Below are positions 4,205-63,826 of a stretch of 64,000 nucleotides of DNA, piece by piece. The DNA is taken from the NCBI RefSeq assembly GCF_056746865.1, contig NZ_CM163382.1; one strand, 5' to 3'. The position numbers were made by a program, and so were the translations under genes. The notes beneath the pieces were generated by a model, which saw nothing but the letters and a program-made list of their open reading frames with translations, had not been told where the DNA came from and made no database searches. Position 1 is the stretch's first letter, and each line of letters starts with the position of its first letter.

Positions 4205-5848
4205 TTATGCCGTCCGGGCAACGGCATCACGCGAAGCGGCATCGCGCTCTTCGCCCGTCAGCTCGCTAAGTTGCCCGTTGCGCATTTCCAGCAGGCGGTC
4301 GGCGTGGATAAAGTAATGATCATCATGACTGATGGCGAAAATCGTTTTACCCATCTCCTGCATCAGCGGCAGCAACACCTGATAAAACTCACGACGGAAG
4401 TGTGGGTCCTGATCCGCCGCCCATTCATCCAGCAGGATAATATCGCGTTCTTCTGCCAGCGCCAGCAACAGCGCGACGCGTTTTTTCTGCCCTTTCGATA
4501 ACTTCAGGTTAACAATACGCCCGTTGCTTAACTCAAGCTTATGAGCCATTTTCAGTTGCGCCAGCCACTTCTCAATCAGTTGCGGGTTAGCGGGTTGACC
4601 CTCCGGCCCCAGCAGTTGATCGAACAGCCAGACATCGGTAAACACTGCCGAAAACAGTTTGCGATAATCTTCCGGTTGTTCGCCGCTGACAGGTTTGCCA
4701 TCCAGCAAGATTTCGCCGCTTTGTGGCTGATACAAGCCCGTCAGCAACATCGCCAGCGTCGATTTTCCACTACCGTTGCCACCAATCAGAAACAGCAGCT
4801 CGCCACGTTTAATGGTGAGGTTAATCGGCCCAACGGAAAACGCATTATCCTGATAAGCAAACGTCACGTTACGCAGCTCCAGCGTTTGCCAGTTGGGAAA
4901 CGCCTGCGGGCGTGGAAACTCTGCTTTGAAAGGTGCGAGCGCGAATTTGTTCAGCTTGTTAAACGCCACCTGCGCCGTCAGCAGCGTCGGTAATGCGCCA
5001 ACCGCCGAAAGCAGCGGCGTACGCAGGAATAACAGCGTCAACGAATAGGTCGCGGCAACGTTGGTATCAGCCCAACCGAGACTGTTCGCCATCCAGAACA
5101 CCAGGCCGATTGCGCCCAGCATCATGATGTTTGACCAGTTCACGGCACTAAGATGGAAGGTGTCTGCGCGAATAATATGATGGCGATACTCTTGCGCATC
5201 AGGAATGTAGAGGTTGTTAAACACATACTCGGCGCGTTCCCGGTTCAGAGTCAGCTCTTTGCGCCCTTCGAGTACGGTTTGAAAATCCGTGTACAGCTTG
5301 TCTTCGGTTTCACGCAGGGTCGCCATATGTTTGTACACCCGCGCCACCAGCACAAAACCGCCCCAGATGGTGACTGCCATCCAGATAGCCGTTACCAGCA
5401 ACATTTTGCCCGACAGCATCCACAAGTACGCCGCGGAACCGATAGTGAGGATGATCCCCTGCACCAGTTCCGGCAGACGCACAAAAGCAATGGTGATATT
5501 GCGCACATCGCTGGTTAATCCCGCCAGCAACGAAGCGCTACCAAGTTGTTCAATGCGCTCGACGTGGGTATCCAGAATCCGCTTGATAAATTCGCTACGC
5601 AGTCGGTAAACGAAGTGATGGCCCAGCGTAGTAAGCGCCAGTTGCGATCCGAGAGTGACAGCCATCAACAGTAGCAATAATCCCAGAAACTCCGGCAACA
5701 CCAGCAGACTGGTATCTGCCGTTTCGATAAGACGCTGATTGATAAAAGCAATTAAGCCAATGCCTAATGCCGCACTGGCGAGGCTTAGCGCCATCACACT
5801 GATAAATGGCCAGCGATACTGCCGCCAGACAAGTACAAGAAGTTCCAT
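4205..5848 (-). CDS. yojI: ABC transporter, fused permease/ATP-binding (microcin J25 efflux type), 547 aa
   Basis: N-terminal TM domain plus Walker [13 protein letters not shown] signature LSKGQKKR, Walker B ILLDEW in translation. Confidence 0.88.
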
Positions 5849-5923
5849 GCAGAAAACCCGGACAATGAATTACAGCCCGCAGTTTAAACATCTTCGCGCG
5901 CACAGCAATAATAATTCTTATTT

Positions 5924-6574
5924 TTATTCTTTTTTACCTGCCTGACGGAATGTCAGGTTGTAGCGGCAGTCGGTGGTGAGTGGATGAAACCCCGCTTTCA
6001 ACGGTTGAATGCCATGATAAAACAGCCGCGATTCACCGCCCCATACCACCACATCGCCATGTTCCAACAACAAACGTTTTAGCGGATCATTTCGTTTCAG
6101 GCCGCCAAATTGAAAAATCGCGGGTAAGCCCAGAGAAACAGAAACAATCGGCGCGCGCAGATCCGGTTCGTCTTTATCCTGATGCAGCGACAGTTTCGCG
6201 CCAGGAGCGTAGCGGTTGATAAGACAAGCATCTGGCTGGAAATCTGGATAGCCCGCCGCCGTAGCCGCACGTTGACATAAATCATGAAAGCTTTGTGGCA
6301 TGGCGGGCCACGGTTTATTTGTTTGCGGATCAATGGGCGAATAGAGATAACCTTGCCGATGGGTCGTCCAGCCCAGATGCCCACAGTTGGTCATCGCCAC
6401 CGACATGGTATATCCGCCTGGAGTGACCATCTGGCGAAACGGCGACTGGCTGGCAACATCATTAATATCGCGGATCAGTTGCTCCGCAGCGTTAAAAGTA
6501 AAACGCCGTAAAATTACCGCACCAGCCGCCAGAGGCTCTTGCCACGGTTCAGCATCGGCAAACAGATCCAACAT
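5924..6574 (-). CDS. alkB: AlkB, Fe(II)/2-oxoglutarate-dependent DNA/RNA demethylase (216 aa)
   Basis: Translation MLDLFADAEPWQEPLAAGAVILRRF...; start codon overlaps ada stop (TAATG). Confidence 0.92.
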   Translation of the reverse strand: MLDLFADAEPWQEPLAAGAVILRRFTFNAAEQLIRDINDVASQSPFRQMVTPGGYTMSVAMTNCGHLGWTTHRQGYLYSPIDPQTNKPWPAMPQSFHDLCQRAATAAGYPDFQPDACLINRYAPGAKLSLHQDKDEPDLRAPIVSVSLGLPAIFQFGGLKRNDPLKRLLLEHGDVVVWGGESRLFYHGIQPLKAGFHPLTTDCRYNLTFRQAGKKE

Positions 6575-7638
6575 TATCTCTCCTCATTTTCAGCTTCGCG
6601 GCGCAGCAGTTGTGCTTTACGCAACACGCCCCAGCGGTAACCGGAAAGTGTGCCATCACCACGGACCACCCGATGACAAGGTATAACGATAGCGAGCTTG
6701 TTGGCGGCACAGGCGCTGGCAACGGCACGTACCGCTTTCGGTTTGCCGATGGCGTTAGCCAGTTGCTGATAACTGACGGTTTCACCGCAAGGTATCGTGC
6801 GCAATGCCTGCCAGACTTGTTGCTGAAAAGCAGTGCCGCGAATGTCCAGCGGTAACGTCAGCGGCGTATCGCGTTGATTGAGGCTGGCGATCACTTCACG
6901 CACATGTTGCTGAAACGTCAGATCGGCAGGCGCGTTGTCGGCAGCGGGAAACATCTGCTGCAACTCGCTGATTAATGTCGCGTCATCATCGCCCAGCAAT
7001 ATCGCGCAAATCCCCCGCTCGCTTTCTGCCACCAGGCAACGGCCCAGCTCACAATCAGCCAGCGCGTAACGCACCGCCAGATTTTCGCCACCGTGACGGA
7101 ATTGTTTAGCCGTCATGCCCAGCGTTTCGTCGGCTTTGCGGTAGTAACTGCTGCTGTCGGGAAATCCGGCGTTAAGAATAGATGTAGTCACGCTCTCCCC
7201 TTTCGCCAGCGATTCGCGCAAACGGCGAGCGCGCCAGGCCTGTTGCCAGGCTTTCGGCGTCATTCCGGTAGTCGCTTTAAACAACCGATGCAGATGGAAC
7301 GGGCTCATCGCCACCTGGTCGGCTAAGGTTTCCAGCGTTACAGGCGTTTCCTGTTCCAGCAGTCGGCAGGCGTGGGTGATTTTATCCAACCGATGTTGCT
7401 GGGCATTGGCTTTATCGGGTTGGCAGCGTTTGCAGGGGCGAAATCCGGCGGTGAGTGCCTCACTGGCATTTGCGTAGAAGGAGACGTTTTCCCGCAAAGC
7501 ATGTCTGGCGCGGCAAGACGGACGGCAAAAGATGCCTGTGGTGCGCACGGCGAAAACGAATTCGCCGTCGGCATTCGGGTCGCGGGCTAAGACAGATTGC
7601 CAGCGTTGATCGTCAGTTAAGCATGTGGCGTTTTTCAT
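6574..7638 (-). CDS. ada: Ada, O6-methylguanine-DNA methyltransferase / transcriptional activator (354 aa)
   Basis: N-terminal Zn-Cys cluster (CRPSCRAR...CKRC), AraC-type HTH, C-terminal PCHRV active site in translation. Confidence 0.92.
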   Translation of the reverse strand: MKNATCLTDDQRWQSVLARDPNADGEFVFAVRTTGIFCRPSCRARHALRENVSFYANASEALTAGFRPCKRCQPDKANAQQHRLDKITHACRLLEQETPVTLETLADQVAMSPFHLHRLFKATTGMTPKAWQQAWRARRLRESLAKGESVTTSILNAGFPDSSSYYRKADETLGMTAKQFRHGGENLAVRYALADCELGRCLVAESERGICAILLGDDDATLISELQQMFPAADNAPADLTFQQHVREVIASLNQRDTPLTLPLDIRGTAFQQQVWQALRTIPCGETVSYQQLANAIGKPKAVRAVASACAANKLAIVIPCHRVVRGDGTLSGYRWGVLRKAQLLRREAENEER

Positions 7639-59655: not shown

Positions 59656-60897
59656 TTAATGATGTGCCACGTCGGTCTGCGCAACAGTGCGATTTACACG
59701 CAGAGTGAAAATAATCAGCGAACCGATGACCGCCACCGCTGCCAGCGTCAGTAATCCCGCCGCATCGCTGGCAAACAACGTTTCTGCTTTCACGCGCAGG
59801 ATCGGGGCAATAAACCCACCCACTGCACCAAACAGGTTTACAAAACCAATCCCCGCCGCCAGCGCCGTACCGGAAAGCAGTTGTGTCGGCATCGTCCAGA
59901 ACACCGGCTGCACGGCAATAAACCCGATGGCTGCAACACACAGCGCTACGATCGCCAGTACTGGAGAAAGCAGCCCGGAGAGACCAATACCAATGCCTGC
60001 CGCCAGTAATGTCAGCGCCGCGACATTACGCCGTTCGCCGGTTTTATCGGAATAGCGCGGAATAAGCCAGGTCCCAAACAAGGCCGCGACCCACGGAATG
60101 GCGGTGACCACCGACGCCGTAAAGCCCACTTTTGTCCCCAACAATGCAGCAACCTGCGTCGGCAGGAAGAAAATTAATCCGTAAACCGCCACCTGAATGG
60201 TCAGGTAGATAATCGCCAGTTGCCAGACTCGCCCATTACGCAGCGCATCGCTCAGTCGAGAAGTCACTTTCTGTTGTTCTTCACTTGCCAGTTGGTTGAT
60301 AAGCAACGTTTTTTCTTCTTTACTCAGAAAACGTGCCTGCTCCGGCGTGTCATCAAGCCAAAAGAATGTGAATACCCCAGCGCCGACTGCCAGCAATCCT
60401 TCAATCACAAACATCCAGAACCAGCCGGGATGCCCCATAAATCCATGCATCTCCAGCAGCGCGCCGGAAAGCGGTGATCCCAGTGTTAACGCCAACGGTG
60501 CGCCCATATAGAACAGCCCCATAATGCTGGCGCGATTACGCTGCGGAAACCATTGCGAGGTGAGATAAATCATACCAGGGAAGAACCCGGCCTCCGCAGC
60601 ACCAAGCAGAGTGCGAACGATCAGAAATTTCGCTTCAGTATCGGCCCATGCCATGGCTGCCGAAAGAAATCCCCACAGCAGTGTTGTCGTACCAATCCAG
60701 GTTCTGGCCCCCAGTTTGCGCATCAAAAGATTCGCCGGAACACCCAGAAACGCATATACCACAAAGAAAATGCCTGCTCCCAGCGCATAAGCTTCATTAC
60801 TCAGCCCGGTATCAATCTGGTAGGTTTGTTTGGCAAAACCGATATTCGAACGGTCGAGAAACGCCAGCACATACAGCGCCAACTTGACATCCTCCAC
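59656..60897 (-). CDS. rhmT: L-rhamnonate MFS transporter RhmT, apparently 5'-truncated; ORF begins at a GTG inside the IS end
   Basis: Translation starts [24 protein letters not shown]..., lacking the usual cytoplasmic N-terminus and part of TM1; frame continues upstream into IS sequence. Confidence 0.75.
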
Positions 60898-62635
60898 GCC
60901 CTGAAGAACGTGGATCCCTGCTACGTTCAGGCTGTCGCCTGAATCATTTCGGTGGGTTCCTGCTTCAACGAGCGGCCTGACTGCACCATCTCTCCACAGG
61001 CAAGAACGGCGTGCCCCGCCGCTAAAATGTTACGAGCGCCATTTACATCGGCGTTCGCTGTATATCCACATACCTGGCATCTGAATTGACTTTGTGACAG
61101 GCGATTTTCTTTCGCAGTATGACCACAGCACGCGCAACGCTGGCTTGTGTACGCTGGCGGAACAGCAAGCAACTGACCGCCACTCCAGAGCTGCTTGTAC
61201 TCAAGCTGGCGGCGCATTTCATACCAGCCCTGATCCAGTATCGAACGGTTTAAACCTGATTTTGCCCGGACATTGCGCCCCGGCTGGCTGAGCGTACCCG
61301 CTGCTGACTTTGACATGTTGCTGACCTTCAAATCCTCAATGACTATCATTGCGTGGTTTTTGCTGACGGTCGTTGTGACTTTGTGAAGGTAGTCCCTGCG
61401 GATATTTGCGATACGGGAATGCAGTCGCTGTATTTTGCGTTTCTGCTTCTGCCAGTTGTTGCTGAATTTGACCCTGCGGCTTAACTGTCGCTGAAGTCTC
61501 GCCAGCTTCTTCTGGTTTTTCTGAAAACTGTTTACAGGCTCAAAGACTGTGCCATCTGACAGCGTGGCGAGTTTAGCCACGCCAGCATCCAGCCCGACCA
61601 TTGATGCTGAAGGGTGAACCGGAGTTGATACTTCACTTTCTGTCTGAATACTGATGTACCACTTACCGCAGGACTGGCTGACAGTGACATTTTTTACAAC
61701 ACCCGTGACCTGACGGCTGTTCCGGTAGCGCATCCAGCCCAGTTTCGGCAGAAAAATACGGCTGTTTTCCTGATCGAGCTTAACGCCCTGCGGATAGCGG
61801 AATGCATCATTCTGTCCCCGCTTTTTGAATCGGGGAAAAGCAGCCCGATTCTGGAAGAAGTTTTTGTAAGCCCGCTCAAGGTCTTTCAGTGACTGTTGCA
61901 ATGGCTGTGAGGGCGAATCTTTAAGCCATTGCGTTTCAGTGGCGTTTTTCCACTCAACCAGCCAGGAAGCCATTTTCCCGTAAGGGATGTATTTATTACC
62001 GGCCTCATGATTCTCATTCTGAAGCGCCAGAGCGCGATTGAAAACGAAACGACATGCGCCTGCGAAGCGCCTCATTTCACACTCCTGTTGACCACCTGGT
62101 CTTAACTGGAATTTAAATGCCTGTAATCGTTTCACAGGTCAAATGATACTTTGGTCTATGAAAAAAGAAACCGATATCCGGCGTGGAAGGCATTGTGTTT
62201 TCCTGATGCATGTTCACCTGGTCTTTGTCACCAAATACCGACGCCAGATTTTTGACCATGACGCGACAGAAAAACTACGCACTTACTTTTCAAATGTATG
62301 TGCTGATTTTGAAGCTGAACTGGTTGAAATGGATGGCGAACCAGATCACGTCCATTTGTTAATTAACTATCCTCCCAAACTGGCGATATCCAGTCTGGTA
62401 AACAGCCTCAAAGGCGTATCGGGTAGGTTACTGCGACGAGATCGACCAGATATTGCAGTCAGGTATTACTACAAAGGCGTTTTGTGGAGTCCTGGCTATT
62501 TTGCCAGTAGCTGCGGAGGTGCGCCAATATCCGTCATCCGCCAATACATTGAACAACAGCAAACACCTGGTCAGGTGGAAAACCGCGCCTTATATCCCCG
62601 CCCTGAAGGACGGGGTTTTACAGCGCACTGGATAA
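60887..62635 (-). mobile_element. IS200/IS605-family insertion sequence (~1.7 kb) with divergent tnpB and tnpA; boundaries approximate
   Basis: TnpB and Y1-transposase ORFs; both ends carry the same-orientation 17-nt motif CGCCCTGAAG(A/G)ACG(T/G)GG (60897-60913 and 62599-62615) embedded in imperfect hairpins. Confidence 0.75.
60927..62135 (-). CDS. tnpB: TnpB (OrfB), RuvC-like RNA-guided nuclease of the IS200/IS605 family (402 aa)
   Basis: Translation [37 protein letters not shown]..., C-terminal zinc-finger CACCGH...CQVCG and [10 protein letters not shown]. Confidence 0.88.
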
Positions 62636-62748
62636 AGTCATGGACTCAACAACCTCAATCCAGCCATGCTCACTGGCGATGTCCTGGCCGTTTAACCAAC
62701 GGCGCAGCATATTCAGTGCCATCATTGCGCACACTTCCTGACGGATAG
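62158..62748 (+). CDS. tnpA: IS200-like Y1 (HuH) transposase TnpA; 3' end uncertain, ORF reads through the element end into yfaY antisense
   Basis: Translation MKKETDIRRGRHCVFLMHVHLVFVTKYRRQ...HVHLL (HuH)...YYYKGVLWSPGYFASSCGGAPISVIRQYIEQQ; ORF is ~50 codons longer than typical TnpA. Confidence 0.65.
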   Translation: MKKETDIRRGRHCVFLMHVHLVFVTKYRRQIFDHDATEKLRTYFSNVCADFEAELVEMDGEPDHVHLLINYPPKLAISSLVNSLKGVSGRLLRRDRPDIAVRYYYKGVLWSPGYFASSCGGAPISVIRQYIEQQQTPGQVENRALYPRPEGRGFTAHWIKSWTQQPQSSHAHWRCPGRLTNGAAYSVPSLRTLPDG

Positions 62749-63826
62749 CCAGGCTGTAGCGCGTAGTGCTGAAACGCACACGCAGAGCGAAAGTGCCGTC
62801 TGGCGTGGCTAGCGCAAAGTTGAGATGTTCGTTCTCGAAACCAGAAACAGCCAGTGCCAGCCCGGCAAAATGGTTGGCCCGCCGTTCTGTAATCCAGTGC
62901 GCAGTTTGCGCCAGGGTTTCCTCCTGTGAAGGAACCACTTCACACGCCAGCAATGGAGCACCTGCGCGAGAAAGTTGCAAAGCCAATAAACCACCGGTGA
63001 ATTGCTCGCTCAACGTCAGGCTGAACTGGCGGTTTTGCAATTCGCGGCTGATCTGCGAGGGCAGTCCTTCGGTACCTTCGAAAATCACGCTCTGTCCGGC
63101 AACACGTTTAACGTCCAGCCACAGTTTTTCCATCGCCTGTTTCTCGCTTGCCGGTCCGGTGAGTTTCAGTTCGATAATCGGCATAGAAGAGCGATAGCCC
63201 ATTGTTACCCCCGGCGGCAGTTGCAGGGTGTCCAGGCTTTGTGCCAGATCGCTTTCCGAACGACCAAATGTAGTCAAACGCAGACAAACCGGCGGCTGCG
63301 GTAAAGAAAAACGCTCGCGCAGGCGCGGCAGGATTTCGTGCTCGACCATCACCTTAAATTCTGACGGTACGCCGGGGGTAAAGAACATCAGGCAACGATT
63401 AAGCTGCACGGCAAAACCACAGGCGGTGCCTACCGGGTTATTGATAAATTCAGCACTGGCAGGTAGCTCCGCTTGTTTACGGTTGCTCGGTGTCATTACT
63501 CGTCCACGTTCGTGGAAATAGCGTTCCATCTCTTTGAGCCAGGCCTCATGCAGCACCAGGCCTTCACCTTTTGCTGTTGCAGCGGCGAGTGCGCTTAAAT
63601 CATCACTGGTCGGCCCCAGCCCGCCGTTAACGATCAGCACATCGGCGTGCTGACTCCGTTCGCGAAGAATGGTCACTAAGTCATCAAGGTTATCTCCCAC
63701 CGTATTGCGGCGAGATAATGGCAACCCCTGATGAAAGAAAAAATCGGCCAGCCAGGCAGCGTTAGTGTCAACGATTTGCCCGTGTAACACTTCATCCCCG
63801 GTGGATAGCATTTCCACTTTTAACAT
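62618..63826 (-). CDS. yfaY: YfaY, CinA-like molybdopterin-binding (MoCF) domain protein (402 aa)
   Basis: Translation MLKVEMLSTGDEVLHGQIVDTNAAWLADFFFHQGLPLSRRNTVGDNLDDL...; stop abuts the right-end IS hairpin. Confidence 0.85.
   Translation of the reverse strand: MLKVEMLSTGDEVLHGQIVDTNAAWLADFFFHQGLPLSRRNTVGDNLDDLVTILRERSQHADVLIVNGGLGPTSDDLSALAAATAKGEGLVLHEAWLKEMERYFHERGRVMTPSNRKQAELPASAEFINNPVGTACGFAVQLNRCLMFFTPGVPSEFKVMVEHEILPRLRERFSLPQPPVCLRLTTFGRSESDLAQSLDTLQLPPGVTMGYRSSMPIIELKLTGPASEKQAMEKLWLDVKRVAGQSVIFEGTEGLPSQISRELQNRQFSLTLSEQFTGGLLALQLSRAGAPLLACEVVPSQEETLAQTAHWITERRANHFAGLALAVSGFENEHLNFALATPDGTFALRVRFSTTRYSLAIRQEVCAMMALNMLRRWLNGQDIASEHGWIEVVESMTLSSAL

Follow-up and report, generated by a model that had tools for sequence, protein, structure and literature searches.

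The mechanistic reference for the IS200/IS605 family is IS608 of Helicobacter pylori, whose transposase TnpA binds the single-stranded form of the subterminal palindromes, its cleavage sites being read by guide tetranucleotides (PMC3201880). Each end of IS608 carries a subterminal imperfect palindrome, the two being in direct orientation; the element encodes a Y1 HUH TnpA together with a TnpB, and has at its right end (RE) a spacing of 10 nt and the right cleavage tetranucleotide TCAA (PMC3201880), all of which recur at the locus analyzed here. The IS609 of E. coli K-12, located between ydcL and ydcO and annotated as insQ plus the pseudogene yncK, is 1748 bp long, with C...TCAA termini, a TTAT flank, and divergent tnpA and tnpB genes. 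This divergent organization is the IS605 arrangement. IS609 differs from IS608 in the spacing at the left end (LE), which is 16 nt versus 19 nt, in the target, which is TTAT versus TTAC, in the irregularity of the stem, which is a T.G mismatch versus an extrahelical T, and in having tnpA divergent from tnpB, unlike IS608. No paper describing the ends, the target, or the TnpB TAM of IS609 was found.

The locus lies in a stretch of 64,000 nucleotides of contig NZ_CM163382.1, referred to as the window. Two related 17-mers, CGCCCTGAAGAACGTGG at 60897-60913 and CGCCCTGAAGGACGGGG at 62599-62615, are both found on its plus strand. We are highly confident that they belong to the LE and RE subterminal imperfect palindromes of a complete IS609, a 'peel-and-paste' element of the IS200/IS605 family with an IS605-type divergent tnpA and tnpB, which occupies 60884-62631 (1748 bp) and whose active, canonical top strand is the minus strand of the window. 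Its boundaries follow from nine other copies, three empty sites, and the curated K-12 feature. The initial annotation had placed the two motifs at these positions, in the same orientation and each in a context capable of forming a hairpin, and had read them as the subterminal palindromes recognized by TnpA; reading of the sequence and the searches agree with it. When CGCCCTGAAGGACGGGG was searched for on both strands of the 64-kb window with up to two mismatches, exactly these two sites were returned, with a chance expectation of 0.00 from 100 shuffles. Comparison of the ends with each other extends the similarity to 21 nt at 86% identity (60893-60913 versus 62595-62615, repeat family D4), and folding gives a stem of 8 bp and a loop of 4 nt at each site. 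In every copy, at all loci examined, the motifs lie within the IS, as expected for subterminal palindromes of an IS200/IS605-type element, and their recognition by TnpA would follow by analogy.

The boundaries of the element were determined from the other copies. Nine of them, at no fewer than seven unrelated loci, share a common sequence that runs exactly from TTGACATCC... (60884) to ...GCGCACCG(G), i.e., ...GCGCAC(C/T)G, and this conserved block is followed by GATAA in all copies, or by GGTAA in the plasmid variant. Empty sites were needed because conserved sequence by itself does not tell where the target stops and the IS starts; indeed, the delimitation obtained from conservation alone, a TTATC target and an element of 1747 bp, was corrected by three of them to TTAT and 1748 bp. 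The K-12 empty sites at yeaQ/yoaG, ytfA, and yajI all read ...|ATAA... without the G and, therefore, the IS begins with the G at window position 62631, and the minus-strand target is TTAT. In the three pairs of occupied and empty sites, the insertion is exact after TTAT, with no base gained or lost. The curated K-12 feature has the ends TTAT|CCGGTGCG... and ...GGATGTCAA| over 1748 bp, and the window copy ends in the same way, with both ends matching the other copies and the K-12 boundaries to the base save for three substitutions that are private to the window copy. For the window copy itself there is no simple empty site, owing to a deletion that is discussed below. The ends thus sit where the motifs had predicted them and not elsewhere, and the earlier suggestion that the end of the element is altered is not sustained.

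On the top strand, the layout is 5'-TTAT | C-CAGTGCGCTGTAAAA - LE hairpin - tnpA (read toward LE) - tnpB - RE hairpin - AGGATGTCAA | -3', with LE adjoining yfaY, 3' of TTAT, and RE adjoining yfaV. The target, or left cleavage tetranucleotide, which the initial annotation had proposed to look for beside the tnpA-side end, was located at 62632-62635 (TTAT on the minus strand, ATAA on the plus strand). Here, the tetranucleotide is part of the host gene yfaY and directly precedes LE; TTAT, or TTAC in three variants, flanks LE in all copies examined, and TTAT is also present in the empty sites. The LE tip consists of 16 nt, CCAGTGCGCTGTAAAA on the minus strand (62616-62631), with private substitutions at 62622 and 62629. 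In the RE tip, AGGATGTCAA (60884-60893, minus strand), the right cleavage tetranucleotide TCAA ends 10 nt beyond the foot of the hairpin on its 3' side, and this tip is invariant in 14 of 14 copies with an RE, from five genera. Compared with the K-12 IS609, the window copy has the same hairpins; it differs in occupying another locus, in nine private substitutions, and in residing in a 2.35-kb deletion rather than in a simple insertion. Its identity to the copy that BL21 carries between ydcL and ydcO is 98.2%.

The LE palindrome (62596-62615, minus strand) reads CCCCGTCC-TTCA-GGGCGGGG from 62615 to 62596, with a T.G at stem position 6, and contains the second 17-mer. The RE palindrome (60894-60913, minus strand) reads CCACGTTC-TTCA-GGGCGTGG from 60913 to 60894 and contains the first; here, the private substitution at 60907 gives the stem a second T.G. 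Folding of 56-nt segments of minus-strand single-stranded DNA gave -11.3 kcal/mol (z -2.8) around 62596-62615 and -7.9 kcal/mol (z -1.8) around 60894-60913, and slightly weaker values on the plus strand (-10.6 and -6.8 kcal/mol, respectively). The hairpins fold better on the minus strand because the T.G found there is a C.A on the other strand. These 20-nt end hairpins are in direct orientation and conserved across genera, and the element has no terminal inverted repeats, in agreement with membership of the IS200/IS605 family.

IS609-like loci of Photorhabdus, Proteus, Klebsiella, Yersinia, and Salmonella were fetched by means of the 138-aa TnpA, the Salmonella locus covering the tnpA side only, with a divergent LE. 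Together with plasmid pPEC422_6, these elements have the same LE/RE architecture and, where RE is covered (not in Salmonella), the same RE tip; some have a TTAC flank. Both hairpins are conserved in Escherichia, Photorhabdus, Proteus, Klebsiella, and Yersinia. Stem position 3 of the RE hairpin changes from A-T to C-G in a compensatory manner (Klebsiella) or to T.G, while at stem position 6 every LE has a non-Watson-Crick pair (T.G, T.T, or C.T), as does every RE but that of Yersinia. In the loci of a Klebsiella plasmid and of Yersinia ruckeri, the LE tip beside the hairpin reads TTATAT, not GTAAAA, which gives rise to a longer, near-perfect palindrome, GCGCCTTATAT-hairpin-ATATAAGGCGC, and in these loci the flank is TTAC.

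With IS608 as reference, each palindrome would form a hairpin on single-stranded DNA, with a stem of 8 bp that includes a T.G mismatch and with TTCA as the loop. The Y1 transposase TnpA would bind both hairpins; its left cut (TTAT|C) would fall 16 nt before the LE hairpin and its right cut (TCAA|) 10 nt after the RE hairpin. The LE palindrome at 62596-62615 is, by the same analogy (PMC3201880), a putative TnpA binding hairpin, and its stem irregularity may mark the active strand in the way the extrahelical T does in IS608 (PMC5027513). The pairs of guide and target AAAA-TTAT (E. coli, Photorhabdus, and Proteus) and AAAG-TTAC (pPEC422_6) fit the IS608 pairing rule. For the 4 nt located 5' of the LE hairpin, the pair ATAT-TTAC (Klebsiella and Yersinia) does not fit this simple rule. 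The donor joint left by excision of the window copy may read ...GACTTTAT|GTTGGCG....

The insertion has affected the end of yfaY (62618-63826, minus strand), which here encodes 402 aa ending in ...MTLSSAL*, compared with 400 aa ending in ...MTLSV* in K-12, a comparison that the initial annotation had suggested. Homology with K-12 resumes on the yfaY side at 62631/62632. The Ser codon at 62630-62632 straddles the junction between host and IS, and the codons at 62621-62629 and the TAA stop at 62618-62620 fall within the 16-nt LE tip. The TTAT target sits four codons from the end of yfaY and the IS lies 3' of it; therefore, the yfaY frame now finishes within the LE tip, which supplies a new stop in place of the former end. 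The substitutions in the LE tip alter this IS-derived tail from SGAP*, the translation of a typical LE, to SSAL*.

It had further been proposed that the IS end may contribute both the last codons of yfaY and its transcription stop. The first part stands, for the last three whole codons and the TAA, while the second does not, with the T run on the wrong strand and a negative terminator scan. This bears on another reading of the hairpin at 62596-62615, namely that it is chiefly an intrinsic terminator, for tnpA on the plus strand or yfaY on the minus strand, and that its likeness to the other end is secondary. We consider this reading unlikely. Its G+C-rich 8-bp stem is indeed followed on the plus strand by TTTT and then by TTA (62618-62620), the reverse complement of the yfaY TAA, as the initial annotation had seen (TTTTA adjoining the yfaY stop), and the native 3' region of yfaY, with an inverted repeat of its own, has been deleted, so that yfaY needs a new transcript end. 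The TTTT run, however, is on the strand that is sense for tnpA and has only four T, whereas in the yfaY transcript it is AUAUAAGG that comes after the LE hairpin, and the terminator scan called nothing at this hairpin on either strand. Moreover, the same hairpin is found at RE without a T run, the LE hairpin is conserved across genera together with the 16-nt tip and the TTAT flank, and the Klebsiella and Yersinia variants have ATAT instead of the T run. A weak secondary role of the LE hairpin as terminator for tnpA may nevertheless exist beside its role as an IS609 end. A separate terminator-like hairpin, CACCTGACCAGGTG followed by TTTGCTGTTG, is found on the minus strand at 62564-62577. It lies within the IS, opposite the 3' end of tnpA and approximately 40 nt past the stop codon of yfaY; from this pattern match, yfaY transcripts may have a substitute end there.

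The tnpA gene (62158-62574, plus strand) encodes a Y1 HUH transposase, and its open reading frame spans 62143-62748, with candidate starts at 62143 and 62158. The protein matches the NCBIfam profile NF033573 with 146.8 bits, against a cut-off of 55, over the whole profile (2-126 of 126), and in the alignment of TnpA proteins the HVHLL motif and the Tyr in RQYIEQQ, which are those of a Y1 HUH transposase, are invariant. Its relatives in Salmonella, Photorhabdus, Proteus, Klebsiella, and Yersinia are 82-88% identical and 138 aa long, ending in ...QQQTPG/S/D. In the window, 138 codons (62158-62571) are followed by CAG at 62572-62574, whereas the DNA of the orthologues from these five other genera and of plasmid pPEC422_6 has TAG at this position, with tnpA ending 21 nt before the LE hairpin. 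The CAG is shared by the K-12 IS609 and is present in eight of eight other E. coli chromosomal copies examined. From this comparison of sequences, the loss of the stop is a feature of the chromosomal IS609 lineage of E. coli and not special to the yfaY locus. As a consequence of the change from TAG to CAG, the frame runs in this lineage through the LE hairpin into the flanking DNA of each copy. In the window, it is open to 62748, antisense into yfaY, for 58 codons past the ancestral stop position, approximately 20 in the IS and approximately 38 antisense to yfaY. The initial annotation had recognized both the passage of the frame through the hairpin, for which it gave about 50 codons, and the loss of the natural stop. 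The E. coli database proteins of the TnpA family range from 143 to 254 aa because the open frame enters flanks that are specific to each locus.

That the open tnpA frame results instead from truncation or rearrangement of the element end beside yfaY is very improbable. The label of 'missing C-terminus' given to tnpA by PGAP and the two private substitutions in the LE tip would agree with such an event, but LE is, up to the TTAT flank, that of eight other copies base for base and matches the start of the K-12 IS609, the TnpA domain is complete (2-126 of 126), and the open frame is accounted for by the single change from TAG to CAG that is common to all chromosomal copies examined. The PGAP label reflects, judging from the profile matched in full, the lost stop and not a truncated domain, and tnpA is flagged as a pseudogene by PGAP in every chromosomal copy examined. 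The copy at the K-12/BL21 locus is, in addition, flagged for an internal stop in tnpA, which the tnpA of the window does not have. In each of the eight further chromosomal loci that were fetched, tnpB has kept an intact 402-aa open reading frame while tnpA is flagged as a pseudogene, with the stop lost and, in some, internal stops too. In K-12 mutation-accumulation lines, zero IS609 events were recorded (PMC5009759), although the copy at the K-12 locus is the one with the additional internal stop. Finally, that the shared 17-mer is a chance match or host sequence, for which only its short length speaks, can be given practically no credence, in view of the 0.00 matches expected in shuffles, of a K-12 homology that ends at 60883 and returns at 62631/62632 and so leaves both copies of the motif in inserted DNA, and of the fact that both accompany the IS at seven or more other loci and are inside it at every locus examined.

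The complete IS609 also carries an intact tnpB (insQ; 60927-62135, minus strand), a 402-aa open reading frame for an RNA-guided endonuclease that matches NF040570 with 388 bits against a cut-off of 100, and the identical sequence is annotated as insQ/TnpB in E. coli 042. It is divergent from tnpA (62143/62158, plus strand), which is the organization of IS605-type elements. A predicted omega-RNA scaffold, made up of the 3' end of tnpB and RE, covers 60884-61058 on the minus strand: for the last 175 nt of the top strand in eight sequences, the RNAalifold consensus has 53 pairs, five of them with compensatory double changes, one of which is in the RE hairpin. In Rfam, the scaffold has sub-threshold matches only, to RAGATH-18 (E 0.007) and HgcC (E 0.09). 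RNAs of the RAGATH-18 and HgcC families are transcribed from the 3' ends of tnpB genes, and related RNAs act as guides of TnpB nucleases (PMC4615843, PMC11061315). According to this model, the RE hairpin is probably also the last stem of the predicted omega RNA that would guide TnpB, and the guide would continue into yfaV, at about 60864-60883. The LE hairpin gives a weak match to sot0042 in Rfam.

Relative to K-12 and to the closest strain with an empty site, AR_0372, 2348 bp are missing at the locus, comprising the end of yfaY, yfaX (rhmR), rhmD, and the first 62 nt of yfaV. The junctions are at window positions 60883/60884 and 62631/62632, and the lost DNA corresponds to 4601-6948 of the empty-site locus. 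On the top strand, the lost segment starts immediately after the TTAT of yfaY and ends with a TTAT in yfaV (...CCGTTTAT|GTTGGCG). The second endpoint is attributed to the transposase because only 0.65% of the positions in the region follow TTAT on that strand; from the sequence of the two junctions, the TTAT-to-TTAT deletion almost certainly implicates the transposase, with the second endpoint chosen by it. The yfaV-RE junction is found in 189 of 5426 complete E. coli genomes and the LE-yfaY junction in 187 of 5426, and by megablast the yfaV-IS-yfaY arrangement is identical in strain 042 and others. Among the same 5426 genomes, the deletion without IS, a simple insertion at the yfaY TTAT, and an insertion at the yfaV TTAT, the three intermediate junctions, each gave zero hits.

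Three routes fit the deletion. The conventional one, two insertions of IS609 in the same orientation followed by homologous recombination, fits the junctions observed. As a tentative and rather doubtful proposal, TnpA may have made the 2348-bp deletion in a single step, in which RE would be cut at TCAA| and its 3' end joined to the second TTAT|, on the same strand in yfaV, with the intervening DNA released as a single-strand circle. If true, this would be a transposase-catalyzed adjacent deletion; in the literature searched, no description of adjacent deletions by IS200/IS605 elements was found. A deletion between TTTAT/TTTAT repeats followed by insertion is formally possible but less economical, given that it needs two coincident events. 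Slippage at the IS end was considered and found unlikely, with no bases shared between the breakpoints at RE/old flank and in yfaV.

The remaining part of yfaV, without its first 62 nt, occupies 59656-60883 on the minus strand, and its frame is open into RE and through the right end of the IS (60884-60942, minus strand). In strain 042, PGAP places the start of yfaV inside the IS, at the equivalent of 60930 (a CTG codon), with a 4-nt overlap with the tnpB stop.

Megablast finds IS609-like sequence at a query coverage of 80% or more in 4836 of 5426 complete E. coli genomes; the median number of matching places is four per genome. The end hairpins of IS609 are, therefore, real but ordinary structures of an element that is already catalogued and present in most E. 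coli, and the only mildly unusual item at this locus is the TTAT-to-TTAT deletion. The exact coordinates obtained for this copy, which include its ends, the TTAT target, the hairpins, and the point where the omega-RNA guide likely begins, have little importance beyond correct annotation. They explain a YfaY that is two residues longer, a yfaV start inside the IS, and a tnpA called a pseudogene with a 'missing C-terminus' despite its complete catalytic domain. In the deletion allele, the L-rhamnonate cluster lacks its dehydratase and regulator genes; the allele marks a lineage that amounts to 189 of the 5426 complete E. coli genomes searched, strain 042 included. On a small scale, this deletion from TTAT to TTAT records in nature a reduction of the genome driven by an IS200/IS605 element.

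Nine substitutions in the window copy, at 60907, 61116, 61172, 61292, 61695, 61794, 62034, 62622, and 62629, set it apart from seven other chromosomal copies of IS609, none of which has them. Of the nine, three lie within the approximately 66 nt of the end structures, one in the RE stem beside the loop (60907) and two in the LE tip (62622 and 62629), and could reflect decay of the ends or drift.
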